Positions 13,715-62,829 of a stretch of 64,000 nt of DNA are shown in pieces. The position numbers and the translations under genes were made by a program. The stretch covers positions 863,338 to 927,337 of the forward strand of contig NMRA01000106.1 in NCBI GenBank assembly GCA_002633005.1, read 5' to 3'. The notes beneath the pieces are model-generated. The model searched no databases, was not told the origin of the DNA, and saw only the letters and a list, made by a program, of their open reading frames with translations. Within the stretch, counting starts at the first letter, position 1. Each line of letters opens with the position of its first letter. This stretch comes from Phoronis australis (lineage: Eukaryota > Animalia > Phoronida).

Positions 13715-31367
<17,653 letters not shown>

Positions 31368-31497
31368 ACTCGTCTTGCTGGGTTGAGATCCTGAGAATCA
31401 CTGACGAGTGCTTGCTGCAATAGCTGCGTCGATTTTCATCGATGTCGCAGAACTGACGAGTTGAATGAATGTGTGAAGACAGTCTCTGGCAGTCAGT

Positions 31498-33264: not shown

Positions 33265-36200
33265 CTACATGCCGTTGTAAGCCGGTCCTTCTCCACCTTG
33301 TGGACACACCCAATTGATGTTCTGGCTGGGGTCTTTAATGTCACATGTCTTACAGTGGATGCAGTTCTGTGCGTTGATCTGCAGCCGCATTCCACCGTCC
33401 TCCACTTCTACGTATTCATACACGCCTGAAAACAAGAATGCATAGCCATTACATAATTAACGGATTAGCTTCATTCCCTGGCATGGTGGAGGCCACTAAA
33501 CCAAAGGCAAAACAATGACTGTGACCGTTAAGTGAATGGTACACAAATGCCAAGTGCCACTAAGCAACCATAAACCTCCCAGCTTCCGTCACATAAACAT
33601 TTGTCTTTTGATTTAGAATACTCACCACTACAAAATTGGTCTCAACATTTTCCACAGTCAAATTAGAAATTATTTCTTGGCATGAAACGAACTCTCAGTG
33701 TGCTATTGTTTGAGATCAGGTTCCATGAGTCGATTAGTCAAAGCAGATCATTTTTGTACAGAGCATAGTCTAAAGCTATATCAAACTGTCAATTCTTTGC
33801 AAACCCAGAAATGATTTCTCAATAAACAAGTAGTTTGAAAAAATAGAATATTAAAATTAACATGGGTTTATAGCTACAGCAAAAAAGAATATTGCAGCTG
33901 GAAACTAAAATCAAATAGGCAAGTCCAGAAATATCCTGCTTCATAATTACATTAAAATAAACAGATAGCATTACAACAGTCAACTTTCAAATATACCTAA
34001 TAATGCAAGAGACACCACATAATTTAATAAAACTCAAACTCAATAGGCAGAAATCAGTAAGAGTCTGATTTACATCATTTTAATTCAATGAATAAGGCAA
34101 ACAATCACAGTGAATTATGATGGTAAAAGACCTTCATTTAGTATTTTCTTTTATCCAAGAAGAAATTTAGCATATTCAGGTAGCAGCCTACTAATTGACC
34201 TGTATGACCACCATTGCTAATGTTATATTACCTGCTGGGCAAAACCTTTGTTCTGGGCCATCGTATATGGCAAGGTTGTTATTAACAGGAACATCATCGT
34301 TCTTCAGTGTGAGGTGGGCTGGTTGATCATGATCATGATTTGTGCCTGTTAGTGCCACGGACGACAATAAATCAAAGCTAATTTCACCATCAGGCTTGGG
34401 GTAGTCAATCGGTGTACATTCTGAAGCAGGCTTCAGCTTACTGGAGTCTAATTCTGAAAAAAAGGAAGATAGTGGCAAATTGATTCCACAAGCTGTAAGA
34501 GGCATTCCAGTCTACATCCTGCAGTCTACAAGAAAGAATTGGCCTAAATTGAAACTCACAGGCTGACGTAATTCCTCAAGGTGTCCATCTCTAAGTACAA
34601 TACTTACCACCGTGCTTCTCTAAGAGAAAGAAGTAACTTCAGATACAGTGTGATACCTCAGTGAAAGCATGATCAGAGTCAGTGTTACAGTCAAATTGTA
34701 AAAAGCTGTATAAGGAATGCTATTAACTTAAATTCTCAGAACACTGCAATTTGTGGTTACATTTAGTTGCTGCTCTCTGTCCATGAACGCAAAATTTGGT
34801 AAAATTATTACCAAGCATGGTCAGTGATTGTAAAGAGACAAAATCAGAGAGAATACCTTTGTGCCTTAATGTCCATGGTTCCTTTCCTCGTAAAAAGCAG
34901 TAGAATATTCCAGTATAAAGAAGTCCACCGTATAGCCCCAAAGGACTGTCGAAAGATGGACGAACGTTGCGAACCGACTTCAGCTCTTGCCACACCCAGC
35001 TGTTTTGCATATTTGTCGTGTAGATTTCAGGATTCAGGCCAACTAAAAGATTTTGAAAAAATTCAGTACGTGTAAAAACAAGCAAATGTTTTGAAATAAT
35101 GACGATGACTCGCACATTATTAAGGGTTTTGGACAGGAATTGATGCAAGTCACCAGTCACCAGTAGAACTAGCATAACTTTTCTCAAAAATAGATGGATG
35201 AATTTTGGGTGGTGTTTCGTACACCAAAGACAATCAAGACTATGTGCTTTGCTTGAAATGCATGGCGATATCGTAAATTTTCGCGAGTATTTTTGGGTCT
35301 ATGAAAAGCAAGTTTGACCCTAATGTCACAGCAACACACATATAATGTACACAGCATGTGGACAAATGTCATAGCACATGTTCAAACAATAGCTAAACAA
35401 TACATTGCAATATAATGCTTATGGCAAGTATGTTCTAGTTAGCTCTATTTCCAAAGTTCCTTCATTATTTGTGTTCATTGATCATCGAAAAATATTATTG
35501 AAGTTGGTGCAACATATCTTTTATTGAAAAAATGAGAAAGTAAAATTTCATATCATGTCCTAAATTGGTGAAAATTGACCGTGATCTCCAAAAAAGAAGA
35601 CTAAGTTATTCACAACCCAAGAAATACAGCCAGAGCTTGGGTTGCTTTGTGGTTGTTTGTGTCGTTATTTATGGTGTAGTTTTTATAACCAAGCAGAAGC
35701 ATACAGGACTTAAAAAACCTTGCTTGTAAAGGGTGTTCATTTCATGAAAATAATTCCAAATGTCCTCTACCCTTATCTGGAAGTTGAGTAGTAAAGCACA
35801 AAGATAAAACGCTAATTTAAATGCACATAAAATGCCAGCACAAATTAAGTTTTAGAGGTAACATTAATAAACTTGACTATTATGTAGAGTGCACCTGAAC
35901 TCACCAGNTTGGTGAATTGTCAGCGTGCTTGTTGATTGTCTCATATACACTCTCAGCTCCCACAATGCCGCTCTTCATTGCATTGTGGGTACCTTTGATC
36001 TTGGGCACGTTCATGAAGCCAGGACTACAGCCTATTAGGCAGCCTCCAGGGAAGGTAAGTTTGGGTATAGACTGAAACACACAAAAGGATGACTAAATCT
36101 GAAGTCTGTAGCTTAAGGTAAGGGAGTACGCTGATATACTATAACAAATAGATTGAATCTACCTGAGGAAGCACCAAAGCCAAATGGTAGACAGTATAAT

Positions 36201-39200
36201 TATCAAAACATCCAGTTTTAAAAGACTGTTGTGAGACAAGAATAAACAGCAGCACATGCTAAGTTAAGGTAGATTCACAACACGTTCCTCAAAGAGTGAC
36301 TTCAACAGGGGAGGGAGTGACCCCCGGGATGTCACTGATATTAATTATTAACCTGGAAGCCTCCCTCATTCAGTGCTAACAGTGAAGGGAGTGACCCCCG
36401 GGATGTCACAGATATTAATTACTAACCTGGAAGCCCCCCTCATTCAGTGCTCTGGCTCCATACGCTATCCTCTTGCCACCTCGCAACACTTTCTCCACAG
36501 ACGGGTGGTGCTTGAACTTCTGGAAGGTCTTGAATGGATTGAGGTAGGGATTGCTGTAGTCGAGGCCAACCTGATGTCAAAGGTCAAAGAGCATGAAAAT
36601 GAAGGTCACAGCTGATTGGTCACATCAGATAACAAGTTAGCTTCTCACCATTGATTTCCACAGCAAAACCATTTAAGTATTAGAATTTTGAGGATAATCT
36701 AGTAAACAGGAATGTGCCATTGCCAACTAAAGAAAGAATATGAATTAAAGATATAAAAGGTGAATTTTGAGGATATAGATACTTTTAGCAAAGTAATCAA
36801 TGCATTAATCTACTGATTGTATTATAATTTCCATGAACAAGATTATGAGAAATTGTTGTGCAACCACAACATCATCTAAATTGTACAGAAATTTATAAAG
36901 TTAACGAAATTTCTAATGTTCTTAGGCACATGTACAATCAGTTACTCAAAAGCATTTCATGAATCCAAAACACACATTAAAGTGCCTTGCTACATACCAC
37001 CATGCCTATAGCAATGAGCGGCGCACCTTCACCTAAATGGTACAAGAAAGAGCCGGCGTATGTGTTCCTGTCCTGTGAACAAAGCATGCATGTTATGCAT
37101 ACATTCTGACAATAAAATATAAAACAATACCGTAGAATACACAAGAACATGAAGTGTTCAAGAGACTCACAAAAGAACATCACAAAAATTAAATTACATG
37201 CCGCAATTAGACGACGAATTGTCAAACATAAATTTTAATCTTACTGTCAAAAAAGTTCAAATGCTATACTTAATAATTCTAAAATTATCATAATGTTTTA
37301 CTAAATCCTCTAATATGCTGAGGTTGGGGAACTTGAAAAACAATGTTTTTCAAATTTTTAAACTTCAAAATCAGAATAAACGAGCAATGTTGCTGATCTA
37401 GAAGAGTTAAGTCATTTGAGAAGAAAGTTGGCATTCCAACATCAGAAGATGATTGACAGTGACTTTAACCAACATAAAAAAAGAAATCAGTCCTCCATAA
37501 GTTTTGTTCCTCACCACAGGCCATCCCACTGTGTGTTCCACTCTCCCTGGTTTGTGATTGGCTGGATCTATTTCCCATACTTCCTTGAAGCCAATACCGT
37601 AAGACTGTGGATCACATTCGTCACGGAGATTGAACTGTGTGTAAAGCTGTTTGGCTAGGTGTCCATGGCAACCTTCAGAAAACATGGTGACTTTGGCATG
37701 TAGTTCCATTCCTCTCTCAAAAGTGTCCTGCAGAGAGATTAAACACGTGCTGAATATTAAAAGCCAGACAAACTTGTTCTTAACTCACATTTCAAGAAGC
37801 AAGTAAACATATATTTTCATCAAGCTAATAACTTCCACCAGCCATTTTGGTCTTCCACAGGCGATAGATAACTTCAACACACATAAAACCTTATCTGAGT
37901 CACACACCACGAAGACAATTGCTAGACACATTTGGACAAATCTGGCTAGTGCGGTATGATTCTGCAATGTTGTACATCTTTTTGCAAAAGATTTACATAA
38001 AAAATGACAGTCATTTTCTAAATAAACTTGAAAATACAATTTCAAAACAAAGATAATTTCTACATACTGTTTTTAAACTATGTTGAATTTTTTATGTAAT
38101 TTAGAAGTTGATATCAATTTGTCTTGGCTCCATACACTAAAATTTGCTATATTCGCATAATATACTAAATTTACAGAACTAATGAAATGCAACTTTAAGA
38201 CGAGAAAAAAAGCAAGCCTGAATCTCTTGGTTGGATAAAATAACGTCTGGTTGGTCTTTATTACTTAGCTTTATTTTACCTTAGGAGCTCCGTCTTTGTA
38301 TATTCCCACATCATTTGTAGCAATCCCTTTCACACTGCCATCCTCATGGTACAAAACCTGAAAAACAAGCCACATGTATTTTATGAAACCATTTTTACTG
38401 GCCACCGAATCTACATAATTCCAGATTTTAAAACATTTAAATTTTTGCCAGAGAAACATAATTCACCACTATGGATATAATCATTCAGCATGATTGTAAT
38501 TTTGGTGATAACAGAAAAATAGAGCAAAGATTTGAATAATCACAATTTTTACATTAAATTGTATAATATGCATAATGAACAGAAAACAGTAAAGTTGTGT
38601 GACACTTCACATGAAGTAAAGTAACAATTTTAAAGTAACAGAAGATCATATTTCAACAGATCTTGGCGTATTAGTTACATAAAAATTTTGACACTGAGCC
38701 ACGATATAAAATATGTCTCCAGTACCAGCCAGGATGTTTACCAATGTGGTACATTTGTGACCATAGCAGAAACACCGGCTTTATTTTTTCAATTTAAAGC
38801 TTCACAGAACTGAATTTAACTAAGCTTTGCTCACCTCAGCTGCCGCAGTGCCAGGGTAGACCTCTACACCTAAATTTTCTGCCTGCTCACCTAACCATCG
38901 AACTAAGTTCCCAAGGCGTACAATGAAGTTACCAGTGTTGTGCATTGGGAAAACTGGAATAAAGAAACAAAAAATTCTCAAGACAATCTACATGACCTAG
39001 AACTGAACTTAAGGTTGGAGAGGGACTAGGAATCAGTAATATGTCAATGATCTCAAGTTTGACAGTATTTTTGAAGATTTTGAAAAAGTAGCTTTACCCG
39101 TGTTCAGCACCACTTCAACAAAGTCCCTAAACGACTAGGGAACCGAACACAGCGAGGCAATAAACAATAACTGCAATATGAATTACCAGCAACACGCCTC

Positions 39201-42200
39201 GCAAACGTAAGTCCGCAAATCAAATCATTGCACAATACAGTCTTCCATTTAACACAGTAGAGGTAACAGATCCTCTCGATGACTTAAACCATCATTGGAC
39301 AACTTGCTCCAAACAGCAGAAGAGCACACTTGTGTTAAGTACGCTTAGTAACGAAAAGGTGTCTTGTCTGAAAGTGAACTTTTTGGTGACAAATATCAGA
39401 CAAAATCTAAAACAAATAGTGTAGAAACATGTTACACAAGACAAATTGTACTTACATGGCAAAATAGGAATATTTATCCTTCGTTTTTCTGTCAAGATTG
39501 AGAATACATCTTCAGTGACTGGAGTGTGTAGTGGTGCCTGTGAAAGTAACACAAGATAACAAGGTGAGCACATCAGGAATAGTACAGAAGTGGCTTCTGC
39601 TTTTGCACAAAAACATTCTTATTTTGGTTCATAAAGTATAAACCTACCTAATACAGTACAAGCCAAAGGTATTCAGACAAAATGACTCAGAATTACCTGA
39701 CATGACAGTTGGGTGGAAGCCGAATTCCTGGTAATAGAACTCATAGAAAGTCAGTAACGTGGATAAGCCACTCTGTAAATGGAATTTTATCACCCTTATA
39801 GTTATTACCTGTAATTTTTACAATTAGCAGAATTAGATGTCATAACAGGAATCTGTATTTTGTCTGATTACTTTTGTTTTGTACTGTAGGTGGCAGCACT
39901 ATCAGGGCATCAAAATATTGAATAGAGGTGACCCAGAAAATGAACCCATCAAACTTATAATTAATCCAACACTATTTTATTTATTGCGTTCAAATTTGGT
40001 AATTTAAATTTCATTCCATGGGTGACCTTTCCCCAGTTTTAACCATGCAGCCAGTTTCCATCAAATTTTTGGTTCTTTCCAACAGAATTATAATTTAGAA
40101 TTTAACACATTTTGTGGATTTGGGTTTCGCGTCGCCCTCTATATGCTGTAACCACAATAACTATTTTCTCATGAACTTTTTGTGGGATTTAATCTCACCA
40201 ACTTAGGATAAAAATAATTGCAAAAAACTCCCTTTTTTCATTTGCGAAACTAGTGCTTTTAACATTGTTGTGATTATTCACATTTTTTCAACACATTATG
40301 TGATGGTAGTCATGGTGTAGAAATGGAACACGAGGCAGCATTAATTTGATGCCTCACGTCCTTCATGGAAAAACAAAGAAATTCCACTAGTCAACTATGC
40401 TGTGTCCCAGATTGGTGGGAATTTTTCATAATACTATTTTTCAAAATCATCAGATGGTGTCAACCTCCAAATACCCGCTGTCCCTCAGACATTCCCTGAA
40501 AACTTACACCTAATTCTTCGTAGTTGGGAAACAATTCCATTAAAGCTCGTGGTTCAATACAGGCTCCAGACATAGTGTGACCACCTGCAACAAAAATTAA
40601 TTTCCAAGTTCAGAGCAAAATAAAGTTGAACAGCTCTTCAACATGTTTGGCTTTTTGAAATGGGTTTCTTGTTCCACATTTGAGATTTGAAAAGTTTTTA
40701 CTTCCTAGAGAATTATTCTTTTAAAAAATGGTAATTAAAAAACAAGACTGAGTTATGATTAACTAAATTCTGGTAGAACTTTGTGCAGTTTTTACCACAA
40801 TATAATTGAAAAGTAAAATGCATTAAAATGTCCATACATAATAGGTCATTTCAATAACTTTTTCCAACATGTCAGTGCGTTGTATTTTTGCTCATTTCAT
40901 TTACAACAGAATCATCACCATCACTTTTATTTAAAACATCTGAATGTATCCAGAATTGGCAAAAATTCACCAAACACAGAAATAAGCATCACATTTCATT
41001 AAGAGTTTGTTGACATATCTAGTGCTCATTGTTCACCTCACTTTACAAAAGGTGACACAAAAATTACAATACCCATCAACTCACCTATTTCTGATGCCTT
41101 TTCCACAACACACACTCTAAATTCATCATTGCCATCAGCATTGGCAAGTTGTTTCAGTCTACAGGCTGCCGACAGACCAGCAGGACCCCCACCCACAATG
41201 AGCACATCTACCTCATCTGACACTCTCTCCATGTCTACGTCTAAACAAAATGGAGCGATTCATTAATAGTGAGGGTAGGGCGAGTGGGTTGCAATGTGAC
41301 TACAATAGTTAAATGCAACAATTCACCGATAAACAGACCCAGTGAAATGAATCTTTCACACGAGGCTATGTGAGCCTGCATTTAAACAGAAAATGAAGAT
41401 ATTCATTAAGTAAACACATATCTACAGAAACTGAAGATTGTTGTTGTGTCCAAGTTCCACTTGTAATTTAAGACAGCTATAATTCTTAAGCCCGGTTACG
41501 AATGTATCGCCAATATAAAAACTAAAATTGACAAGGAAAATTTTACCTTTCCATCTTGGATCAGTGTCCCTGCTGACTATTGAGTAGTGTGTTGTTATCT
41601 TGGGTTGTGTTGACAGTTGACGACAACATCTCCACACAGACTTTGCACCTGAAATTTAACCATACAAGTAACATCACCAAAACAGGTTTCAACTAAAACT
41701 GGACATCGGTTAAAGGATTAGCACATCTTTGCCTAACTTACTTACAATCTACATTGGTTGTTCAATTGGCTCAAAAACGACCATCAAGTCATGGAGTCCT
41801 CTTGCCATAGTCAAGTTATCAGTCCTTTTGGACATTGCAAGTTAGTAATCCCTAGCACTAGGAACAAAACATTGTTCAGATTCAACATTTGGTGTGTCAT
41901 TGACTGAATGTACACAAGAGCTGTTGCACTGAATGTAAAATATGGACATTCTCTAATTATTTCAAACAAAAAATTCCCAAAATTTTCATTTTTCAAAGAC
42001 TGATTATCATTGTGAAAATAATGAAAACTTTGCCAAATGTCGTTTTGGGGCATCTACACAGCACATAGCACACAGCACGCAACACACAGCACATGGCACA
42101 CAGCACACAACACAAATTATGCTGGTAATTATACAAAATGTTCTTAGTCTTTTCTTTTGAGGAAAAATTTTGACAAAATTGAATTTCACAAGTCATTAAT

Positions 42201-44846
42201 AATAAATAAGTGAGGAATTACCATATACTAATAGTGAGACCACAGGTCTTCATTCAAAGACAGGTCCCTAGTTATGTGCTACTCATAAAGTATGCAGTTT
42301 GAGAGTCCAGCAAATATAATCTATTAAGGCAATGATAATAAGTTGATCTATATCATAAGTGACCCAAAAATTAATGTTTTATAAATTTTAAAGCAACTTC
42401 ATTCGCTGGTAAACTTTGACATTTTGTTATATAAAATTAATTTCGATGACCTTGCATATAGTAATTTAAGCAAATATTAACATGTCTGACGAAAAATACC
42501 GTGGAGCTAAAAATGGCTGTCAGAGTGGGTTTACAAGTTATCAGCCACTCAAACTAGATCTTTTCAACATGATTAGAATTCCTGCATAAACTTTAGCCAC
42601 TTGACACTAAACAATTCTCAGGTAGTTGTCTCACAGATAAGAGGTTCTGTGAATACTGGCAATGTTTCAGTCCTGACCTTCAATTAATTCCAAAATAACA
42701 TTCTGGCCGTCAAACAGACGGCTGCTGCGTAACCCCTTGCTTGGGAGTCCGAGTATTTTGCGCTTTGAAACGTACAGTTGTATATTTTAGCAAATAAAAT
42801 CTTTTAATGTGTATGACATGTGACTTCCGTGTGTAACGCGGAGTTGTATATAGCTCTTCTAAATTACAAACACTGAACAGAGTGTCTTGTGGTCTAGAGG
42901 TTTAGAGTGAAGTTAATTCGTAAATATTGAGAAAGCGGTCATCATTTCAAGCTTTTTTAAATTTTACCAACACTTTTTTAATTCTGACCAATCCCATCGG
43001 AACCCGTCCAAAATAACATCTTGGCCGTCCAACAGACAGCCACTGCGTAAACCCTTGCTTGGGAGTCTGATTATTTTACGCTTTGCAACGTACAGTTGTA
43101 TATTTTAACGTATAAAATCTTTTAATGTGTATGACATGTGACTTCCGTGTGTAACGCGGAGTCGTATAAAGCTCTTCTAAATTACAAACACTGAACAGAG
43201 TGTCTTGTGGTCTAGAGGTTTAGAGTGAAGTTAATTCGTTTTATGACCAAGGTACAATACCCGGTGTCAGAAGCAAAGTTTTTGTGTAACAAATTTGTAA
43301 TGAATGAAACAAAAATTGTGAACTTGCTGAATCAAATAATCGTGGAGAGCGGAAAAAGGTTAGAAAATTCATAAACGTAGAGACCCAAATAAGNCCTGAC
43401 CTTCAATTAATTCCAAAATAACATTCTGGCCGTCAAACAGACGGCTGCTGCGTAACCCCTTGCTTGGGAGTCCAAGTATTTTGCGCTTTGAAACGTACAG
43501 TTGTATATTTTAGCAAATAAAATCTTTTAATGTGTATGACATGTGACTTCCGTGTGTAACGTGGAGTTGTATATAGCTCTTATAAATTACAAAAACCGAA
43601 CTGAGTGTCTCGTGGTCTAGAGGTTTAGAGCAAATTAACTTGGTCTTACGACCACGGTACGATACCCGGTGTCAGAAGCAAAGTTTTTGTGTAACAAATT
43701 TGTAATGAATGAAACAAAAATTGTGAACTTGCTGAATCAAATAATTGTGGAGAGTGGAAAAAGATTTGAAAATTAATAAACGTGGAGACCCAAATAAGTG
43801 TCGTATAGACCGGAAAACGAGTCTGAAAAAATAATCGTAAAGATACGGCTATTTGGAACTCAAGAATAACTGTCTTTTCCATTTGACCTCAAGCAATGAC
43901 TGTAATGGCTTTAAGTCTTCCATTTCACTCTAGCTAGGAAAAGTTAACAACACCAACAGCGCCCTCTATTTTCAAAAGGTATAGCGACAGCAATATATGA
44001 CTTTGACAGTTTAGTCAATGTGAGACATAATTTGCCAAAAGTTTCCATCATACGGCAGCCCTATTGAGTGACTACCATCTGTGCTAGCAGCGCAGGGCAC
44101 GAGTCGGATATGATGGACCTGATTTAGATAACCAGTTTTATCCACTAAATAACGGCCATTATTTAGTGATTGCCTGGTTCTCTAAGTCAGGGTCCATTAT
44201 ATCCGACTAGTGCCGCTGCGCTGGACTGGTTCAGACAGTAGTACTGTCTAGCCAAGAGGAGGCAGCACACACAGGGGACCCGTTTTACAAAACCAACCCG
44301 TGTATTTGTCTTCAGGCTTTATCCTATTGGAGGGCTCTGATGACACACAAGCATATTCTTTACTATATTATATACCTAAGAATTTCCTCTACACTGCACT
44401 ACAGTCAGGTCAGTCAGGCCAGGGGTAGGGGAACTCTGGGACCCCTTACACCCTTACCATTGACCCAGACTAGAAGATAAATATACCCCGGTATCATACC
44501 GCTATACCGAGTATACCGGGTATGTAAACCAGCGCTACCTATATCCAATGATGCAAAGAAACAAACTACTTGAGTTACGTACAAATAAAACGATCTTCTG
44601 CAGTAGCCTTAATAGGCAGGGGACATCGGCAAGTACCACACCACTGACTGTTTACCCACTTAACCACTGACGAGAGTGAACACTGCTGAAGTCTTTACGT
44701 AATCATGTCAGTTGGCTACAGTGACCACACTTGGCTCGTGTTACTGACATTAACCAGAATGTTGTTCGAGAAATCTGCTGACATTTGCCTCAAAAAAGAA
44801 ATCTCTAATTTCAGTTTAACTTACCTGTCAATCTTCCGACAAACAT
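33265..44846 (-). CDS. ETFDH: Electron transfer flavoprotein-ubiquinone oxidoreductase, mitochondrial
   Basis: Exons 44846-44825 (MFVGRLTG, least certain), 41648-41547, 41240-41085, 40584-40508, 39537-39456, 38953-38835, 38357-38280, 37727-37515, 37072-36998, 36570-36427, 36071-35905, 35042-34857, 34453-34232, 33425-33265. FAD motif [22 protein letters not shown], 4Fe-4S ligands RFCPAGVYE and [13 protein letters not shown], and C-terminus [10 protein letters not shown]. Confidence 0.98.
36304..36451. repeat. 74-bp tandem duplication spanning an ETFDH exon end and splice donor
   Basis: 36304-36377 matches 36378-36451. Confidence 0.9.
42672..43798. repeat. Complex tandem triplication in ETFDH intron 1
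   Basis: A ~230-250-bp unit (CCAAAATAACAT...GTGACTTCCGTGTGTAACG...GGTCTAGAGGTTTAGAG) lies at ~42672, ~43007 and ~43394; the last two copies share a further ~155 bp. Confidence 0.9.
44071..44242. mobile_element. Fold-back (near fully palindromic) MITE-like element
   Basis: Left arm CAGCGCAGGGCACGAGTCGGATATGATGGACCTGATTTAGATAACCAG..CACTAAATAA pairs with right arm TTATTTAGTG..CTGGTTCTCTAAGTCAGGGTCCATTATATCCGACTAGTGCCGCTGCGCTG around a 6-nt loop. Confidence 0.7.
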
Positions 44847-45030: not shown

Positions 45031-47061
45031 ATGGCGACTGCCATTGATTTCGAATCCATTATTCGCAATGCAAGAGTGGACAATGCTGTGAGATCTAGAA
45101 CAAATTTTGCGTCGATTTTTGAAAAGGTATACAAGATTAAATCGTTTGAAATGCTCTAGTCAATGCCTAATTCTAATTTTATAATGTATCAACAGTGGAA
45201 ACGGTGAATGTTCAGTGACCAGTCTCACTCTACCTCTGTGGGCCTGTGGCTCACAGGCGCGTGCTCATGTCACGAGCGCGACAAACTTTTGTTACTATAG
45301 GCAAACAAATGATATTCATTAGATTGTTTTTCACTCAAGCGGCTGCAGCCTGCAAGGTGAGTGTTGATTGACTCCTAGATTTTGCATGCGCCTGCTCCAC
45401 TCGCTAGCTACATGTTTCACGTGACCGAGGTGACGAGCAGAACTATACCCGGGCTGTGGGAAATTTCGGGGATGTAACGGAGCTCAATAACGCAGTGCTA
45501 CCAAGTTTTATTTTTGCGAGTCTTTTCACAGCTAGCTGACCGGTTACGTCATAACCCGCAGTATCGTACAAAGGCCTTGATAACTACATTTTGTCCGGCG
45601 GTCATGTTCAGTCCCCGGCGGTCCTGTTTTCTGGTGGGGCGGTCATGTTTTTATATGCGTCAGTCCCATTTTCTGGTGTGACGGTCCCATTTGATCCCCG
45701 GAGGTCCTGTTTTGGGTGAGTCAGTCCGATTTAGAGGACCGGCGGTCATGTTGTTTCTTACTTAGGCAATGACCATCGCCTCTGTTGGCCCGAACCAGAG
45801 GCGATGCAGACCCTATAGGCGCTCTGTACGCCGGAAGCTTTTCGGCGAATTATGCCTCGCACCGACTAAACCATCAAAGTCACGTTGTTATAAATACCTT
45901 TTGCGCATAGAGGAACACCTTAGGAGGTTGTCGATGTGTTAAATAATTTAGCTTACTAAAAGAAGACTGTTGTTTTTAATGATCACTAATTTTGCGTCAG
46001 ATTTTATCTTGCCACTTTTTTACCCACATCGGTTCAAAGTTGTATATTTAGTAATACCAAGGCTACCTCTGGCTCTGTCTTGGCGCTGCTTTCTGCCGGT
46101 CTGGAAGTTGAAACGTAACACAGGCAGACGAATTTCACATCGACTGGTTACCATATAAGAAACATACATGTCTTTTATTTGAGTTAGTGTTGGTACCAGT
46201 GGCAGATACGAGGAACAGATAAACTCGTGGGCATGTGTTCTGAAATAGCCCATCCCCACCCCCGGTTGCCCCAATCAGTACCAATAGTCAATACCCCAAT
46301 CTGTCCAACCTCCAGCACCACCCCTAATTTACAATAAATTTGGCATTGATTTCTTTTGTTAATGTGGTCCTGTTAAATGCTGGTTTTGTAGTACTTTAAG
46401 GATTAAAAAGCTGCAAGGCAGATAATGGAAATTGATTGTTTGTGATGATTCAATATGCTCTTTATTACAGTATGATCGTGAATTTCCTGACAGCGACGAA
46501 ATCAACTTAAGTGATTTTTCTATCGTTAAAGATCGAGGTATGTCTCATTGAACTGTTCTAAAATCATCATTTGTAAATGGCATCTGCTCATCTGCTCATT
46601 CCCCTGAACAACAATGATTCCAATAGAACAACACAATTCCTGATAGACGTTGATACTATGGCACCATAGGCTATTGTACATGGACCGCCAACTCTGTATA
46701 TTTTCAAGGGACGAAATGTGTGATCTTACGCATAAGTCGTGATGTCATTATTCACTAGCGACACCTGGCAAAATTAGCAAGTTTTACTTCTGGCATGTGC
46801 TAATCATAGTCAGCTGTTGTGTGGTCATTTGCTAAAAGTACTCATGGTACCAACAGTTCTATTATTGGAAAACTCTGAGCAGCATTTCAATGCAGACATT
46901 TTTTTTTTCATTGTACTGGACAGTTAAGTAAATGCTAGAATTTTTCGTCTCAATACACTAATTAATATTTTGTTTTTATTAAATTAATTTTTATTATTAC
47001 CTCAATTACATTGATTATTATCACTGTTGTTGTTATTATTATTATTATTATATTATTATTA

Positions 47062-47092
<31 letters not shown>

Positions 47093-48526
47093 TAGGCCAT
47101 TTGAAAAAGATCAAGACTCAAAGTTTTGGTCACAGTCGACTTGCCGTGGAGAGAAGGAGAGGTAGAGTCATGAGTTTACAGTTAAAATTTTATGTATAAA
47201 ATGATGTGTCCAAGGTCACTACAGCACTGCATAGTTATACGACCTCGAACTACGTGGTATCAATACAGCTGAATTTCTCTATGAGTTCTGAGGAATGTCC
47301 ATGTCCTTCATATTGGAATTATGGAGAGAAATTCAGACACAACTAGGTTGTTTAATGGCACTGCACTTAATTAAAACTTTGTTGCTCGGTCATCATTAAA
47401 CATTTACTTAAAAAAAATTTTGGAAATTTGTTTTTGTCAATATGCTTGATGCTGATATCATGTTCATGCACTTTTAATGTTTACAAAGGTTAGACAGACT
47501 CTATTCACATTTTGTTTTCATGAAACAACTGCAGTTAAAGTCTCAACGATTTTGAATAAAAATATTGCCCTTATTTGTTTTTCAGGGGGTTTGAACACTG
47601 TTGCAAATGCCCAAAATTTCTTATTTAAAATGTTGTCGCATGGTAGCTATGGTACATAACTTGAACTTAAACAAATGCTCAAGTAACCAGTCCAAATATA
47701 GTAAACATACAGCACAACAGTCATCAAACATACAGCACAACAGTCATCAAACATACAGCACAACAGTCATCAAACATACAGCACAACAGNNNNNNNNNNN
47801 NNNNNNNNNNNNNNNNNNNNNNNNNNNNNNNNNNNNNNNNNNNNNNNNNNNNNNNNNNNNNNNNNNNNNNNNNNNNNNNNNNNNNNNNNNNNNNNNNNNN
47901 NNNNNNNNNNNNNNNNNNNNNNNNNNNNNNNNNNNNNNNNNNNNNNNNNNNNNNNNNNNNNNNNNNNNNNNNNNNNNNNNNNNNNNNNNNNNNNNNNNNN
48001 NNNNNNNNNNNNNNNNNNNNNNNNNNNNNNNNNNNNNNNNNNNNNNNNNNNNNNNNNNNNNNNNNNNNNNNNNNNNNNNNNNNNNNNNNNNNNNNNNNNN
48101 NNNNNNNNNNNNNNNNNNNNNNNNNNNNNNNNNNNNNNNNNNNNNNNNNNNNNNNNNNNNNNNNNNNNNNNNNNNNNNNNNNNNNNNNNNNNNNNNNNNN
48201 NNNNNNNNNNNNNNNNNNACAACTAGTTCTTGTCTGTCAATCATCTAAGTTCTTAACAGGTCCTCCTGGAGGCAATTTGTTTGCAAGTGTTGGATTTTAT
48301 ATTTTAACCTATTAAAAATAATTAAAAAATTATGGGTCATTGGTTGGAGAAATAAATGAAAAATATGGGCGGTGGGTACGAAATAAAAGTGCCTTCCCCC
48401 CCCTCCCATACAGATTTTGCTGGAACAGCCCTAATTAATATTTTGTTTTTACTAAATTAATTTTTATTATTAGCTCAATTACATTGATTATTATCACTGT
48501 TGTTGTTATTATTATTATTATTATTA

Positions 48527-48563
<37 letters not shown>

Positions 48564-51500
48564 TAGGCCATTTGAAAAAGATCAAGACTCAAAGTTTTGG
48601 TCACAGTCGACTTGCCGTGGAGAGAAGGAGAGGTAGAGTCATGAGTTTACAGTTCAAATTTATGCATAAAATGATGTGCCCAAGGTCGCTTCAGCACTGT
48701 ATAGTTATTCGACCTTGAACTACATAGTATCAATACAGCTGACTTTCTCTATGAGTTCTGAGGAATGTCCATGGCCTTCATATTGGAATTATGGAGGGAA
48801 ATTCAGACACAACTAGGTTGTTTAATGGCACTGCACTTAATTAAAACTTTTTTGCTCAGTCATCATTAAACATTTACTTAAAAAAAATTTTGGGAAATTT
48901 GTTTTTGTCAATATGCTTGATGCTGATATCATGTTCATGCACTTTTAATGTTTACAAAGGTTAGACAGACTCTATTCACATTTTGTTTTCATGAAACAAC
49001 TGCAGTTCAAGTCTCAATGATTTTGAATAAAAATATTTGCTGAAATTGCCCTTATTTGTTTTTCAGGGGGTTTGAACACCGTTGCAAATGCCCAAAATTT
49101 CTTATTTAAAATGTTGTCACATGGTAGCTATGGTACATAACTTGAACTTATGCTCAAGTAACCAGTCCAAATATAGTAAACATACAGCACAACAGTCATC
49201 AAACATACAGCACAACAGTCATCAAACATACAGCACAACAGTCATCAAACTTATAGCACAGCAGTCAAACATACAACACAACAGTCAAACATACAACACA
49301 AGAGTCGTCAAACTTACAGGCTCAACAGTCATCAAACATACAGCACAACAGTCATCAAACATGCAGCACAACAGATAAAGTTTGAGTCTAATACTAGAAA
49401 AAAACTTACAAAAATTAGTGACGTTGCGTCCGCATTTCACGGACTTCAGCTTGGCTTGTGACGTTAGTGTTATTCTGGCTAATTGGTGGTGTTTTGACCA
49501 GATGGCGTGGCATTGACGCCAGAACACCATCCCATACATGTGACAAATCGATTCTGTCCCTTTAACTAGGACAACGATGTTGTGACATCTGCATTTTAAT
49601 GGACTGTTTCGTTTCACCTAACTGTCAGCGCTGGGGATCCTTACACTGAACACCATAGACAACACATGATTTATTACCCTTGGGGGTCTTGTCCTTGACA
49701 TTAACCAGTTAGCTGCGGAGAGAATTAAACGGTTTGTGGATGATAGAAATGTCAAACTGTTCAAAATGTCCTCTTGAGGCGGTCAGAAAGACCTGATAGA
49801 CTCAAACTTTATCTGTTTTCTGAACTTGATGTCTCAAAATTGTCATGCTTTTATACAGCACAACAGTCATCAAACAAAGTAAACTGTTTCTCTGTCATGA
49901 CAACTAATTCTGTTAAATGCAAAAATAACTGGTAATATCCATTTTGGTGGTAACGTTGTAATTCCACAATGACTTAGCGGCCTTACTAACACTCCACCTC
50001 TGTTCCCGCTATTGTCGGTCATGAGGGAAGGATTTAGTGGAAAGTGTTGAAAATGTCATAGTGTTCTGAACATTGATCACATTAATGATTTTGGCCAAAG
50101 TATCAGTACTAGTACAGACTTCAAAATCGGCGCATATGTAAACAAAAGACATTTTATGAATCGACGTGTACCTGTGCAGACTGTTCTCCACCTGTGTTAC
50201 CTGAGTGGAATATTGAGAACATTTGTCTTGGGAACGGTTTAGTGACAATAAACCGAAACGTCGATTAATTCAATGTCTTTGTTTACATAGGCGCTGATTT
50301 TGAACTTAGTACTGAACACGAATCTACATATGATAATGAGAATTGTTTTGCTTTGGCGTATCTAGAGACTGAGGTTGGCATGGACACCTTTTCAAATGAT
50401 GATTGGAGCTTTGTAAATGCAACTGTTGTAACTGCTTTTGCAGATCTTAGTCATCTTCTACTTGATGTTGTGTCTTTGGACTCGGACGAGCCAGATACCT
50501 CTGAAGACATTTGTACTACAGGTACTTACATGGGTGATTTTTAAAAATTGAACAAATCAATAATTAGGGGGTGAGCATGGGTATTTAATTAGAGACTTTT
50601 TGAGAAGTTGGACAGATTGTCAATTTGAATGAACACCCCACCACTACCTTTATGTTAGACTTGTGTGCAAAAATCGAGTGAAAATAGAAGAGTTTTGAGT
50701 ATTTGCCTTCCAAATAAGTTTTGGTGCTGCTGAACTGACTGTCTATCAAATGTAGGAGAGGTCTACGTTTTTGGAGCTAAAATACAAGTGGGAAGAGTAT
50801 TCACAAAGGTATGGATGCTTTAAAGGGAGTCCCCGTTGTGTTAAGTTGGAGTGAGAGTGGGTGTTTAAGAGTGAAAATTTGGTATTTTCATGGGTGGACG
50901 TAAGATAAACATAGGTATTTACTTGGACGAGTGTGGTGGATTGTACGCTCAGGTTTGAATTAATTTGTTTAATCATTAATTTTTGAAAATAGTATTAGAA
51001 ATTGTTATTTCATGTAACTATCTACTCAAGCTTAATACTTACCGGGTGATTCCACAGGATTTTCTATAACTCTTATAGGAAGACTATCCTAGTGTTTCCT
51101 CATCATAAAGGGACAAAAACTGAAGTCAACTAGACTAACAAATTGAATGGATGCCTGGGTCACTTGATATATTATTTGATGGATTTAAACTGGCTTGACA
51201 AATTTAGATGAAACTTTGTTTTTCTTATCCTGAGGATTGCAGCACCCCCTTGTGGCTATTGTTTACAAAACAACTAATAACCAACATGCCGTCATGGTAA
51301 TGCTTTGCTCCTCTCCTGTTTGAATGCTGCACAATGTTGTTATTGTCTTAATTATCTGTATTTGATTACTAACAATGCCCAAGAAGACGACACCAAAAAT
51401 GGCGTACTCACACAGACTTACCCTAGAACAAGTTACACCTGCAGCGAGTTGTCACTCGGTTGAAGTGCTGTCTGGACAGTATTTAAAATAGTGCGCTTTA

Positions 51501-53500
51501 CCCCTCTTGTGACAACTTCACACATTATTGAGGTGGGGTAACGTTTTCTAGGGTACCTTGCACTACTTGTTGTTGCTGTTTGATCACAAAGGTGGGGTAG
51601 AGCGGAAGTAATTATCAGCTGGGGTTACATACAGACGGGTTTTCGTTTGCGCTCTGTGCTGGCATTAAGTGTTCATTGCCAATGACAGAGTGACAACTTC
51701 CGCCTTACCCTAGCTACCGGATATGTTTTGTGTGGACACTCCACTCTGAAGCGGGGTAAGTCGCACTAGTGGAAAATGTTTTGGGGCAGACTGTGTGCAA
51801 ACAGGACTTTAAACTTGCCAATGTCAATGGTATGTTTGTTTATTATTAGACACTATCACCGACAATAGTGATGCTGACGATGATGCTAGGTCCAGTTCAA
51901 GTGAACTAGACATCAGTGGTGAGGAGAGCGATGGCGATGCTAGATCCAGTCCAAGTGAGCTAGACAGGGGTGGTGAGGAGAGTGATGATGATGCTAGGTC
52001 CAGTCCAAGTGAAATAGACAGGGGTGGTGAGGAGAGTGAAAGTGATCTTAGGTCAAGTCTAAGTGAGCTGGATGGGGATGATCTGGGGAGTGATGGAGAT
52101 ATCTCGGATGTGTCATCATTATATGAGTGTGATTCGGCGATGGAAGATAAGTAAGTTAGTTAGCCATTATGTGGTCATCGTTCAGTCATTGCAGAACAAC
52201 CATTAGCCTCTAAATGTACATTTTGTACTGAACAGATGTCATAAATTTTGAGTTATGAATGTTTTAACAATGTAAGCAGCCTTTGGAAATATGAAAATGA
52301 CAATTTTGGCATTTGTTTTCGCATGAAATTGAACTGAAGTTATTGTACCTGTTTTGTAGAAGCGGCGAAGTATCTTCTGGTTGTGAACTGCTGTCCGACA
52401 GTGACGATGATTACTCTGTTGTAAGACCGACACATCAAGCCACAACTGATATCAAACGCCCCAGCAGTCACAAACACATGTCAAGTCAGTCAACAGTCAG
52501 TGGTGGTGACAAAAAAGCTCCTACGTCAGACTTAGAAATGTCATCTAATGTGAAACATGAACAGCATTTAGAGAAGTCAGAAAAGTCCCATAGTGAAGTC
52601 ACAACCATAGAAAACTCTGTGCCACCTGCTGACTTTGGTGTGAATATCAACCTGGAAATGAGCCTCGATCCTCTGTCTGTTTTTTACATGTTTTTCAATA
52701 ATTTGCCGTTAACACCAAAGCACAATAAGAGGGATACAAATAAAATTGAACGACCTCCCATGACACCTGGCAGACTGCTGTCTCCTTCGCAGCTCATGGA
52801 CAAATTAAAACTTTTTTCTCCAAAAAGTTCCAGGAAGATAGCTTCTCCATTGAATTTAAACGCTCTTTCTCCCAAGAATTCCTTGAAAGTTGCTTCACCA
52901 TCACATAAAAATGGTCATGTTTTAAATGGAAGTTCCAAAAAACACCAAGAGAATGTATTTCAGAGCCAAGGTTTGGACATTGCTGAAGCCTCAAATTGTG
53001 ATGATGGAGTGAGCAAAAGTTTCCAGTATTCTGCTCGAAGAAGATTACTGGAAGCGCCATCTGTGGCCTTGAGTAGCACACCCTCGAAGAAAGACCACCC
53101 TACTTTGGAGATCAGCTCAATTTCATCTATTGAATCGCACAGTATTACGTCTTCAAATCTGCATAACTCAGTGAAGGTATTTCACATTCCAAGTGCTGCC
53201 CAAAGGGAACATTCAAAACCGATCGGCATTGTTTCCGGTTACAGGAACACAAAAAACACATTGACGCTTAGATCTGTAAACAATTGGCCACTTAGAATGC
53301 AGTGTAGTGCAGAGAGGCCAGTTGGTGTCGGGCGAGTGCCAATCTATAGACAAAATGTTCAGAAAAATTCAACAAAACGATTCAATCCATACCCATTCAG
53401 TGAAGACAATGATGTTGAAGTCAAGAATCAAAATAATTCATGTCTTGGTCCAGATAGGTGTACTAAAGCTTTCTGTTTCCGATGTTTAAATGACCAGTGA
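45031..53500 (+). CDS. Scm3/HJURP-family CENP-A chaperone (putative), ~582 or ~633 aa
   Basis: Exons 45031-45126, 46471-46537, 47096-47161 (duplicate 48567-48632), 50444-50521 (or 50291-50521), 51850-52150 and 52360-53500; phases 0,1,1,1,2 are all compatible. N-terminus MATAIDFESIIRNARVDNAVRSRTNFASIFEK|YDREFPDSDEINLSDFSIVKDRG|HLKKI matches the Scm3 signature F.sIfeKY...F...DEIdL....IV.D.GHL. C-terminus CLGPDRCTKAFCFRCL. Confidence 0.85.
45592..45752. repeat. Degenerate ~20-21-bp GC-rich tandem repeat, ~8 copies, intronic
   Basis: GGCGGTC(A/C)TGTT / CAGTCCCATTT variants recur at ~21-bp spacing. Confidence 0.65.
47033..47092. repeat. (TAT)n microsatellite (second copy ~48506-48563)
   Basis: About 20 TAT units directly before the exon-3 acceptor TTTAG. 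Confidence 0.95.
47704..47789. repeat. 23-bp minisatellite (also ~49178-49372 and one copy at ~49853)
   Basis: AAACATACAGCACAACAGTCATC units running into the N gap. Confidence 0.9.
48219..48431. mobile_element. Right end of a probable PIF/Harbinger-type MITE
   Basis: Ends ...CCCCCCCCTCCCCATACAGATTTTGCTGGAACAGCCC followed by TAA; absent from the other copy of the duplicated segment; the left end is hidden in the gap. Confidence 0.5.
51410..51770. mobile_element. Degenerate non-autonomous DNA transposon remnant
   Basis: Multiple TTACCC(C) / GGGGTAA(GTCGCAC) motifs in both orientations, typical of subterminal repeats. Confidence 0.35.
51876..52095 (+). repeat. Coding 54-bp (18-aa) acidic/Ser tandem repeat x4
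   Basis: DDDARSSSSELDISGEES DGDARSSPSELDRGGEES DDDARSSPSEIDRGGEES ESDLRSSLSELDGDDLGS in exon 51850-52150. Confidence 0.85.
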
Positions 53501-56704: not shown

Positions 56705-58137
56705 AACTATACAAAGACAGATTAGAGAAGATAACCCAATTTCAGTCACAGTTAAGACCGAAATGTTTCAGGAAATTGGCCCTTGATCTTGCTGCAGTGG
56801 GTAATTTCCTGAGTAAATGCATCAAAATCGCAATTTTCTAGAAAATGTATACATAGACATTGTGTAAAGGAAAATTGTAATACATTCAGTGGTAGAGAAA
56901 AACGATTATTTGATGATTGTTCGCAACATATATAATAAATTTCTCATATTTACCAACACCCAAAAAGCCTATTTTACAGTGAAGACACTTTTCCAACATT
57001 ACCACTACTCATTACGCATCACCAAGTTTTCAGAACAAAATCCACGAATAATTGATAGTCTAAGAACATGGATCAGCGAATCTCAAGCCCACTAGTAAAA
57101 ACAACAACAAATTAAGTTATTTGTGCAACTAGTTAATATTGTAACTTAGTAAAAACTAACTAAGAGGTAACTCCACAGACTGTACTCACGACAAAAGCAG
57201 ATTAATCACATTTTGTTCCATAAAGAATAGAATAGCAAAAATTGAATTTTAATTTAAAGAATACTTTGCGACAATAAAGAAAAATCTCCACTCGTTGAGT
57301 GCTTTATTTTTTTTTTGCCCAACACTAAATCAACACAATGTGCGAGTCCAGCACAGGTAACCACTTCATGGTGCACTTTTGCACATTTTCAAAATGTTAC
57401 AAATTTGTGTTTTGTTTATCCTTTACAATGCTAATGAAAAGCAAAAACAATCCAAAACATATACTATAGGTAATCCAGCCAAACAAAGTAGCAAATACTA
57501 ATAGAAAACTGACAATTTTTGGCAACAAACCCGCCTAATAATACAATTGAAGAAAATTTTAAGTGATACCTTATCCTGATTTAAAACTTTGCTTTCTCTG
57601 ACTGACCCAAAACAAAACTAAAAAACACTTGCCATAGACTGAATTTGATTCACTTTTTAGGTGAACTGGCTAAGACAATTGATTGGTTCTTATTGACAAC
57701 TACCAAACCAACCAGATGTCTCACTCCATTGATTTGAATGACCCCGCGGAGTGAATCAAGTGCATCCAAATGAAACATAAATGTGCAAGGTAATAGATAA
57801 TAATAGTTGCATGCACCAGCTTGCACAAGGAAAATAAATCTTTCAAGAGCCATCAATCTCATTTTGGCCATATCCTTACTGCAGAGTAAGTACCATGAGC
57901 AGATGACAGTCTTCAATTCCACCTTGACAGGACACAAGTCCTCCACAGATAAGTTACTAGACATGACTGTTAGTGGTATTCATTTATGTAGTCCAGTCAA
58001 CCAGAGCAACACATGTTAAATGCCTTGCTCAAGGACATAACTACAGCAACCCACAACCTTCTGGTTGAGACTCCATACAACCATTGAGCTAGTAGACATT
58101 GTGTGTGCATGGACAACAAGCTATACGTCGTTATCAA

Positions 58138-61100
58138 TTAAAGCTTGACAATCATAACCGTGATGTTGTCTGCAGATCCACTTCTATATGCTTGTAAAAC
58201 AATACTTTTGGCACCAAAGTCCGGCTCATGCAGCCTCTGTTTGATGAAGTCCACCGCTTGTTCATTAGTGAAAAAATCCCATAAACCATCCGTGGCTAGA
58301 AGGATGAATTTAGGCTTGTGCTCCTTGAGGTCGAATGTGAGGATCTCAGGTTCTGCTGTGAGAAAGTTCTGCTCCTTTAAAGGAAAGTCTCCTAGCGCTC
58401 GCGACGTGGCAAGCACTCCTGCCACTCGCCAAACACCAACAAAACTTACGAAACCGCCAGCGGCCTCGATTCTTTTTCTCTCTTTAACCTGGAAAGTTTT
58501 CAATCTCATTACTATCACTCATTTCTTTCTGACCCAGCAAAAACCAACTCTTCAAAAGAAATATAACTCTAGGTACACCGTCTGCAATTCCAAGCATTTC
58601 ATCAAAACCAAATACATTACTGAAAATAATGAGATGAACAGATGCATTGTAAGAGTAGCTGTGAGCACTAAAATGTCAAGGCATTTTAATTTTTAAGTGC
58701 GGTGTACACCGCAGTACTTTAGATGAGTAGATTTTATGTGAGCAAAATAACTGCACATAGATTTTACAGTGATGTTTTGTTAATCCTTTACAAAACAACA
58801 TATGGGACGACAAAACTGGGTTTACAAATGAGACTATTTTCATGAACTTGGAATAGGATCAAAAGCATGCAAACACAGCAAATAGTGATTAGTACTATTC
58901 TTACTTAGCAGTCAAAAGCAGTGGTCTTACCCATAAATTACTACACAATGCAAACTTAGTTAAAAAGAAAATCCTTTACGAGTCATTAGGCTCACTGGGG
59001 GATTTGTTTCTGTAGGGTGAACGGATTACTTATTCAACTCTTTCTGGATATTCATTGCAAATCAATTCCTAGAAATGGTTTAAACATATTTTTACAACTG
59101 AGTCCCACTGTAGCACTGCAGTTTAAGCGCCTTATTCACAGACACAACCACATAACTACAGCAGCCAAGGACTGAGCCTTGATCTTTTATTGAGTTGAGA
59201 TTCCATCACATTAATTTCTGGCCACACTGGCACTGCAATAATAGATGTTTTACAGACCTGTACGTGTACCTTTTGGAAGAAAATACCCTCTTTTCGTTTG
59301 AACAATTTGCAACAAACTGAGCTGACAGCAAGAGTAAACTACACACGCACATCTCAATATTAAGTAAATACTGGTCAAACACTGTACTGACTTAATGTCG
59401 AAACCAATTCTCCAAGTATACTTATGTTGAGCCAATAGCGAATGTGCAAATCTCAATGCGCACGCCCCACACCAGTTCCTCTCTATTGCATTCTGAGACA
59501 GTATGTACGCCTAGAAACAGCGTGAGAGTTTCTATACGGAAGAGATTATTGCAGCTGATTATGAGCATAATGTCACCCGGGCCCGGTTTCCAATCTCCGT
59601 ACTCAGACTCGAATTACTCACACTTCATACTCAACTCGAGTACAGACTCAGCTTTGGTGTATTCAATGTCATACTTTAAAAATCTATACTCGAAATTTCG
59701 AGCACTGTACTCAAATTTCGAGTATACTCGAAGTGAAGTGTATCAATATTTCGAGTACGATTTTGAGTAAAAATTCCGAGTATATGCTCCAAATTTCAAG
59801 TTTGGTTTGGCGGCATGCTTGAAATCGTACTCGAAAATAAATATGGCGGATGTGAGACACAGACAAATTATTCCATGAGCTAAAGAAGAAAATATCGAAA
59901 AACCACTGACAGAAACAGCAAATCTGGAAAATTTAAGTCCTCATACCCTATTTCAGTGCTTGAGACAATAGTTTTCATTTTAAATCTTCTTCAACTTAAC
60001 CCGCCGTATCACCGCACTTCATTGCCGCCAATTTTTAAAGTCTTTCTTACTACGATTCCTGGAAACTGGCGAATGCTAATCCCATGTCGACGAGTTATTA
60101 CAAGGGTCAAAAGCAGCTGTGGGGTGGGGATTGCAGTGATTGAAGTGCGTGTGCAACCGTTTGTCAGTTTCCTAAAGATGAGGAAAGTTAAAAAAACAAT
60201 TTGCTTCACTGTCATATTTCACATCATAGTTTAGTCATCAATAATTCCTCAATCCCCAAATGATATTCCAGATTTTGTTTGCCGATTTATGAGTAGACGT
60301 CTCGTTCCATTCACTGATGAACTCGATCTGAATGCGTGTAGACGTGCTCCAAATGTCAGCTAACTTAATACATCCCGGTAAATTGCAAAGATACAGTATC
60401 AAAGTTTTGACATCAGTGTAGGCCTACACGGCAATGGGTTCTATGCAAGAGAGAACAGGGGTTGACCAGTAGCCAAACAAATGTGGCCCAAAAATGTCGA
60501 CTTAAGTTTCGGGCTGACGTGAACAACCGGTTTACTAGATAAGAACACCACCACTGGCAATTAGGGTACAAACTTTTGAAATTCGACTCCCGTCAAGAAA
60601 ATATGCAATTCGAACTCTCCCTTAAAAATGTTGGTTGCAGGGTTGTGATATGGTACCCGACTCCCGTGCCTGGGTCACCGGCCCACCACTGCAGTAAAAA
60701 AGATAATTTCAATATGCCGTCAATCGTTGGTGTGACCATGACAATTTTAGGGGTAAATGAGTCAAGTGTAGGGGAGAAGGCCCCCTGACTAAATCAGACA
60801 TTGAGATTTTGGCTGTTCCACTCTGGCCGACTGCCAAGTGACTTTCTTTGATAAGCTGTTTCAAATATCTTGAGACATTTTCCGGGAGATAAGGAACTCA
60901 ACTTAAAGTAAAGCTTAATAATTGGCAAATGTATTAAAAAATGAAGAATATTGTATCATAAAGTTGAAACTGAAAAAATGAATAACAGTTACAGAACACT
61001 TAGCATTCCACGTTATACTCTTGTAATTGTAGCGAGAGCTGACGATAACATCGTTGCTAGGGTAGTCGATGTGAATATAGGGAGCACTGAATCAGCGCGA

Positions 61101-61963
61101 CTTTGCGTGGTTTTGCATTTCTCATCATAAATAGTTCCATAGCAACTCGAGTACGATTCTCAGATTTGAGTACGTTTGGAGTCTACTCGAAATGTGACAT
61201 TAATTATGCTTTTTCGAGTACGACTCCAGAGAGCACAATTTTGAGTATGAAAGCTCAAGTATGAGCATGAGTCTGAGTACGGAGATTGCTGACTGGACAC
61301 GGGTTGAACACAGTCACAGTCGACAGAGGAAGGGTGCGGCAACGTTGACTTTATTCATTTCCAAAACATTTCTATAATAAAATACAGTTGCATGCTTTCT
61401 GCACTAGTTATTCGTTTAATATTAATTTTTTGATAAGAATTCAATTAAAATAACTTTATTGACCACTTCTGTGCTAAACATTAGTTACAACAACACCCAG
61501 CAACACTGTACACAATCGGTTGTCAAGCAATAGAGGCATTCATTTCCCATAATGCAACTGCGGCGGCAAATTCAAATATGGCGGATTTGTACATTCGCTA
61601 TAGGAAACATTCTACATACAACTCTCTAGAATTGTAAGAGCACAAAAGCGTCATTCACTTGACTATTTCTAATCAAGACAACTGACCAATACTTAAGCAT
61701 ATTGGCTTGCACTCTCTGCATGAGTTGGGTGCCTGGGAAATTACATGATTTTTCAAATAATATTTTTTAATTGCTTAGCCTTAGAACTATATTTTTCAAT
61801 TACATAGATATGAAACAATTTATAATACTTACTTGATATGGTTTATGGTCAAAAGATAGAGGTACAACTTTATCGCTGTGATCACACATCACGCCCCTTG
61901 AATCACCCACATTAGCAACAGTCAGCGTGGTCTTGTTTGCAAGAGCTACAAGTGCTGTAGTTC
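58138..61963 (-). CDS. PPM1L: Protein phosphatase 1L-like (PP2C-epsilon), last two coding exons; 5' part lies beyond the right edge
   Basis: Exons 61963-61833 (GTTALVAL...VANVGDSRGV...PLSFDHKPYQ) and 58488-58138 (ERKRIEAAGG...LATSRALGDFPLK...LATDGLWD...LHEPDFGAKSIVLQAY...DNITVMIVKL*). DHKPYQ and EP.FGAKSIVLQ recall PPM1L specifically. Confidence 0.92.
59576..61303. mobile_element. Non-autonomous DNA transposon (~1.7 kb) in PPM1L intron
   Basis: Inverted ends CCCG...CAATCTCCGTACTCAGACTC and GAGTCTGAGTACGGAGATTG...CGGG, with dense subterminal TACTC(GA)/(TC)GAGTA repeats at both ends; no transposase recognised. Confidence 0.75.
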
Positions 61964-62829
61964 CTACAGCAAATAGTAATAATCCCATAGTTATATACGG
62001 TACCATTATTAAAACTGCATCTCTTTTATAATATTTAGCAGTCAAAAAGAACCAAAGCAAGCGAATATACAGTGGGACGACTTGTACTCAAGGGAAAATC
62101 CCGACAAATTATACAAAATTATTAAAATTATGTATATGCTAATTTACACCTGTCAATGATTAAGAAAGGGAACAAAGCGGAGGCTTTGGGTGCTTTCTTA
62201 TTTAGTCTTCATTTCAACCAATTTCAATGAAGAAATGAGGACTCCAAGAACAAGGAAAAATGTTTAGGGTACCACCAATTGGAAAGAAATTTCTACTTTC
62301 CCAGAATGTGCTTTTGTAATAAATAATATCAAATAACATTCTATTCTAAATAGATATGACAACATTGGACATAATCTGAAATGTATTCAATGATATTGGT
62401 TATAGTGCTTATATCAAAATCCGGGATTTGTACTTTAGAGAGAAACACTTTTGATGAATCCAGTCAATGTGAATTTGCTTTTTGCTGAACAGGGCTAAAT
62501 ACCTGCGTTTAGACAGATATTTTTAGCCTTTTGATAATAAAACAGCATTTACACGGTAAACTAAAATAAATGAAAGCGCTCCGAGGAGCGAGACTTGGCG
62601 AAATTAACCGAAAACATGACGATAAAGATGACGACGAATATGGCAATGATCGTGGCCATGATGAGCATTATGACATCATTCATATGACGAACGTAGAGGT
62701 CAGAAATCAGTAAGAAATAAGCTACAGTCTTGAGCGACACTTGGCGAAATTAACTGAAAAGACGACGACGGAGATGATGACGAAGATGACGAATATGATG
62801 ACAATGGTGATGAGGATGAACAACATCAT

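Follow-up and report, generated by a model that had tools for sequence, protein, structure and literature searches.

The window, which comprises the whole 64,000-nt stretch of DNA that was analysed, can be recognised as animal DNA by its intron-rich, animal-type RPB1 gene, one exon of which scored 172 bits against mammalian RPB1 versus 65-82 bits against yeast RPB1. Beyond RPB1, the window carries genes for ETF-QO and a PP2C phosphatase, both on the minus strand, and a six-exon plus-strand gene that very probably encodes the Scm3/HJURP chaperone of this animal. ETF-QO and the Scm3-like gene are apparently arranged head to head, ~4 kb apart. Self-comparison of the window also returned two tandem repeat arrays, one with 36-nt-type units (8398-8871) and one with longer units (42669-43798). 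The main features are as follows, with the evidence for each in brackets where applicable.

~14100-31400, plus strand: RPB1, with its CTD interrupted by an N gap
~34000-41300, minus strand: ETF-QO (ETFDH)
45031..45126, plus strand: exon 1 of the Scm3-like gene, 96 nt, residues 1-32; start codon, long scm3 helix, K of the KY motif at its end (RNA depth and junction, predicted helix)
46471..46537, plus strand: exon 2, 67 nt, residues 33-54; opens with the Y of KY and includes the acidic/hydrophobic patch and the first part of DxGxL (Pfam, RNA)
47096..47161, plus strand: exon 3, 66 nt, residues 55-76; end of DxGxL, trailing FG (splice sites and frame, stranded RNA depth of 1-4)
48567..48632, plus strand: second copy of exon 3, identical (66/66), within an 830-nt near-duplicate
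50291..50521, plus strand: predicted exon 4, acidic, residues 77-153 (AG/GT and phase)
51850..52150, plus strand: predicted exon 5, Asp/Ser/Glu-rich, holding a 54-nt repeat (splice sites and frame)
52360..53500, plus strand: exon 6, predicted to join here, Ser-rich and weakly basic, with the stop codon (ORF, splice sites and frame)
53441..53485, plus strand: C-terminal cysteine motif, C615-x5-C621-x4-C626-x2-C629 (sequence)
~58100-63300, minus strand: PP2C phosphatase

Exon structure, transcription and haplotypes

Spliced together, the six exons (45031-53500, plus strand) form 1902 nt in one frame with a single terminal stop and would encode 633 aa. The three short exons reported in an earlier note on this DNA (96, 67 and 66 nt) were found at the positions it gave (45031-45126, 46471-46537 and 47096-47161), each with AG ahead of it and GT behind it, and splice in frame to the same peptide; at 66-96 nt they are short, yet not "micro-exons", the term used there, as this word is usually understood. 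That note also joined them to acidic exons and a long last ORF, and reading frame and splice sites are consistent with these predicted joins: all five introns are GT-AG, and their phases link into a stop-free frame. The last ORF measures 399 aa from stop to stop, with 379 full codons inside exon 6. Exon 5 includes a coding tandem repeat (51875-52066) of a 54-nt unit (18 aa, acidic and Ser-rich), present in 3.6 copies and free of indels.

Transcription was assessed in three raw-read RNA runs from one study (X2, X3 and X4) and one set of contigs (X1), all matched by species label, with ~18-19% of each raw-read run read for junctions and the comparison for this gene reaching to 47690, i.e. the region of exons 1-3. 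The first junction predicted by the earlier note, 45126^46471 (GT..AG), was observed in 24 stranded reads across the three runs (9, 4 and 11 reads in X2, X3 and X4, from 7, 4 and 9 distinct starts), with every first mate on the minus strand. The gene is thus transcribed and spliced. The contigs of X1 gave no support for this junction and nothing on the exons. Where bins cover exons 1-3, RNA depth was confined to the strand of the junction reads, and bins beside exons 2 and 3 (46275-46464, 46560-46654 and 47225-47509) were empty. The next joint, 46537^47096, is not among the listed junctions because read mapping left out the ATT repeat (47014-47098) that contains the acceptor; this joint and all those downstream are predicted from splice sites and frame. 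Introns 1 and 2 also contain stretches of high RNA depth on both strands (45230-46084 and 46655-46940), which we attribute to dispersed repeats or mobile elements because 90-92% of these reads continue unlike the locus.

The two copies of exon 3, the second of which (48567-48632) had been missed in the earlier note, each belong to an 830-nt block; the blocks share 94.5% identity, and an N gap (47790-48218) lies between them. An internal ~2-kb part of RPB1 is likewise doubled (23212-25175 and 25177-27147, 94.9% alike), with a single N between the copies, and probably represents both haplotypes of an animal with high heterozygosity, assembled in tandem. The same ~95% tandem copy across N in RPB1 points to merged haplotypes at exon 3 as well, so that the exon-3 doubling probably reflects two haplotypes placed in tandem across the gap; that exon 3 is genuinely duplicated in tandem was considered and judged less likely. 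A 23-nt minisatellite (47703-47789 and 49178-49374) enters the N gap and is probably its cause.

These features bear on an alternative in which the scm3 domain is real and the distal model wrong, either because exons 4-6 are joined otherwise, because additional exons lie in the N gap, or because exon 3 is used twice. The 429-nt gap does sit in intron 3, the distal exons lie past the end of the RNA comparison, and both exon-3 copies are in frame and stop-free. However, the five canonical introns with phases chained to an open frame, the absence of indels in the exon-5 repeat, and the similar doubling of RPB1 across N all argue for the model given here, and we consider the alternative unlikely.

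The predicted scm3 domain

Similarity to the Scm3 family was assessed by scanning seven pieces of the predicted protein (the exons singly, and including a portion of the last exon) against 24736 Pfam models. Exon 2 (22 aa), scored singly, matched PF10384 (Scm3) and no other family, with an E value of 0.0025 and 17.9 bits over positions 23-45 of 53, a score that lies under the curated cut-off of 24.3 bits for this model. Exons 1, 3, 4, 5 and 6, also scanned singly, had no Pfam family match. Single-sequence folding of exon 1 predicted a helix at residues 7-31 (25 residues, pLDDT 91), comparable to the ~25 residues of the scm3 helix (PMC13322267). Since short peptides often fold as helices, we take this prediction as modest support.

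The motifs of the family follow in order. K32-Y33, at the end of the predicted helix, corresponds to KY and is formed by the RNA-supported junction 45126^46471. It is followed by an intact F at KY+4, by the acidic/hydrophobic patch (D41-E42-I43-x-L45), by D53-x-G55-x-L57, which corresponds to DxGxL and in which G55-L57 depend on the predicted joint 46537^47096, and by the trailing FG of invertebrate scm3 rows. The helix has hydrophobic residues at 26, 29 and 30 and a serine at 22, a position that is hydrophobic in 13/13 rows of one published scm3 alignment (PMC13322267). Its hydrophobic moment did not differ significantly from that of shuffled sequences (p 0.12-0.92).

How readily such an arrangement would arise by chance was estimated with patterns that were drawn up after seeing the model and hence favour it. 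Downstream of exon 1, a single AG site out of 452 gave the exon-2 pattern, and the exon-3 pattern occurred at two of the 377 AG sites downstream of exon 2, these being the two copies of exon 3. When the first 80 aa were shuffled 100000 times, no shuffled sequence fitted the whole pattern, a post hoc comparison. Sequence searches of the PDB with exons 1 and 2 returned no Scm3/HJURP chain (best match for exon 1, a dockerin with an E value of 1.7; none for exon 2), and a protein homologue search with the open frame around exon 2 found no relative. The absence of homologues in protein collections fits a family with ~10% whole-protein identity among deuterostomes (PMC13322267).

Relationship to known Scm3/HJURP proteins

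The range of this family was formerly described as tetrapods, fungi and choanoflagellates (PMC3912524, PMC2697330). Hollis et al. 2026 (PMC13322267) have since reported orthologs in deuterostomes, in arthropods and nematodes, and in spiralians, as well as in a cnidarian, a sponge and a placozoan. Echinoderms, molluscs, annelids and brachiopods are among the groups covered, and the family is now found in most animals. Function was validated in zebrafish and C. elegans (PMC13322267). The surprise that the earlier note attached to such a gene is outdated; with the family already found in most animals in 2026, an added member is to be expected, and none of the published scm3 rows examined is this sequence (PMC13322267).

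Identity to seven rows, chosen from the many in Data S1 of PMC13322267, was counted by eye over residues 21-57, ungapped from KY. The highest counts were for Biomphalaria (19/37), Asterias and XP_065196999 (18/37 each) and Capitella (17/37), followed by Monosiga and the fungal POF25970 (15/37 each) and human (7/36). The invertebrate orthologs considered (Biomphalaria, Asterias/Patiria, Capitella, Lingula, Priapulus, Trichoplax, Geodia and Paramuricea; PMC13322267) resemble this protein in having an N-terminal scm3 domain with KY, an acidic/hydrophobic patch, DxGxL and a trailing FG/IG, and a long polar remainder with no detectable likeness beyond the domain. Metazoan members listed in Table S1 range from 288 to 1823 aa, with scm3 inside the first 92 residues, a layout that the N-terminal scm3 and long polar tail of the 633-aa model (distal joins predicted) would fit (PMC13322267). 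For these orthologs, the main text of PMC13322267 describes no C-terminal cysteine motif like the one considered below.

A reading in which the Scm3 likeness arose by chance in an unrelated low-complexity protein would accommodate the sub-threshold Pfam score and the lack of homologues in protein searches. It would also require chance to have built the motif across a junction shown by RNA, to match several published invertebrate rows at about half of 37 positions (PMC13322267), and to achieve what no post hoc shuffle did; we regard it as highly improbable. Based on the Pfam match of exon 2, the predicted helix of exon 1, the RNA junction and the agreement with published alignments, the earlier note's assignment to Scm3/HJURP is borne out: the gene very probably encodes this animal's Scm3/HJURP chaperone, whose role would be to take up new CENP-A/H4 and load it at centromeres.

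Human HJURP (748 aa, scm3 at 16-68) shares with this protein KY, the F at KY+4, the N-terminal place of the domain and a similar length (PMC13322267), but differs in its low identity, in a TLTY-type strand, and in having vertebrate motifs close to its HMD and R2 regions. These vertebrate motifs were not found in the 633-aa model; residues around 349-366 bear a faint likeness by eye, which we rejected. Fungal and choanoflagellate Scm3 (PF10384) have in common with this protein the DE-I-x-L patch and DxGxL, in addition to the 15/37 identities to POF25970 and Monosiga, whereas the gene described here is a multi-exon animal gene. Drosophila CAL1 and C. elegans NEFR-1 belong to the same family, and in both the scm3 domain has diverged much further than it has here (PMC13322267). 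The earlier note's impression that this protein resembles the fungal form more than human HJURP does is upheld by the counts (15/37 vs 7/36), although the nearest rows are those of invertebrates (17-19/37). Because DXGXL is treated as ancestral to fungi and animals (PMC13322267), we interpret the fungal look as retention of ancestral motifs lost from human HJURP.

Loss of CENP-A selectivity would be a further way to depart from this assignment, the gene then being an scm3 paralogue with the role of an H3/H4 chaperone, general or germline, or of a competitor. Ser22, at a conserved hydrophobic position, and the large acidic block described below would be compatible with such a role. Against it, this gene retains KY, the F at KY+4, the acidic patch and DxGxL, each of them intact, and most deuterostome genomes have a single strong scm3 match (PMC13322267), which makes a non-selective paralogue very unlikely. 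The protein is probably what loads CENP-A in this animal, and its scm3 domain, fairly conservative for an invertebrate, adds a stepping stone for homology searches; the general question of the invertebrate CENP-A loader received its answer in 2026 (PMC13322267).

C-terminal cysteine motif and possible mode of action

Four cysteines near the C-terminus (615, 621, 626 and 629) are arranged as C-x5-C-x4-C-x2-C and are likely to form a zinc site. We take this motif to resemble the CYS domain of fission yeast Scm3, a zinc-binding, cysteine-rich domain that, according to Folco et al. 2024, is reportedly needed for centromere targeting. Homology between the two is a tentative idea, closer to doubtful than to probable, and the connection of the motif to the scm3 exons depends on the distal exon joins predicted from splice sites and frame. 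[quoted passage not shown] Deuterostome members are said to have no feature in common other than the scm3 domain.

Searches with the motif against Pfam, proteins and the PDB returned no Scm3 protein. The best PDB match was RNF4 (E value of 0.5), with nothing relevant found, and a Pfam match to DUF4668 (E value of 0.16) was rejected as chance. Protein searches with the last exon and with its last 45 residues found no homologue; a search with the last 79 residues returned two proteins, one a tandem-repeat ORF and the other an Ig-repeat protease from a bacterium, which were dropped as repeat-sum artefacts. Among metagenome contigs, 118 pattern matches were obtained and none was confirmed, and no cysteine-rich tail was seen in Aspergillus Scm3 coding sequences. 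The last 59 residues, folded as a single sequence, reached a pLDDT of 51, too poor for a search. The best Atlas matches of the motif (0.85 and 0.79, all under 0.9) were IBR/PHD zinc fingers, which we treat as leads only.

In the literature, a narrow search, and so a weak negative, found no description of the cysteine motif in animal HJURP. The word "cysteine" occurs once in the main text of PMC13322267, in a reference title, and that text describes no animal C-terminal motif; the string "FCF" has, among the matches listed for the alignment file of that paper, a single occurrence in an unrelated dipteran block. The portions of PMC12532704, PMC13079627, PMC12695027 and PMC13445767 that were consulted likewise contained nothing on a cysteine domain.

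By analogy with the family, whose mechanism is based on structures 3R45 and 2YFV as named in PMC13322267, the predicted scm3 helix would pack antiparallel to CENP-A helix 2, and KY would touch a conserved CENP-A glutamate. The acidic/hydrophobic strand encoded by exon 2 would read the CENP-A loop-1 region, which would provide the preference over H3/H4 (PMC13322267). More speculatively, the chaperone may be brought to centromeres by Mis18 or CENP-C, with the C-terminus performing the targeting, possibly via its putative zinc site.

The remainder of the predicted protein suggests two further steps of a similarly speculative kind. Following a mixed region (residues 1-76), the protein has an acidic block at residues 81-280 with a net charge of ~ -52, and 23 CK2-type sites fall within residues 77-270; this block may shield histones. 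Beyond it lies the Ser-rich, weakly basic region, and ten S/T-P sites are spread over residues 187-494, eight of them in exon 6. This cluster might set the time of loading through CDK phosphorylation.
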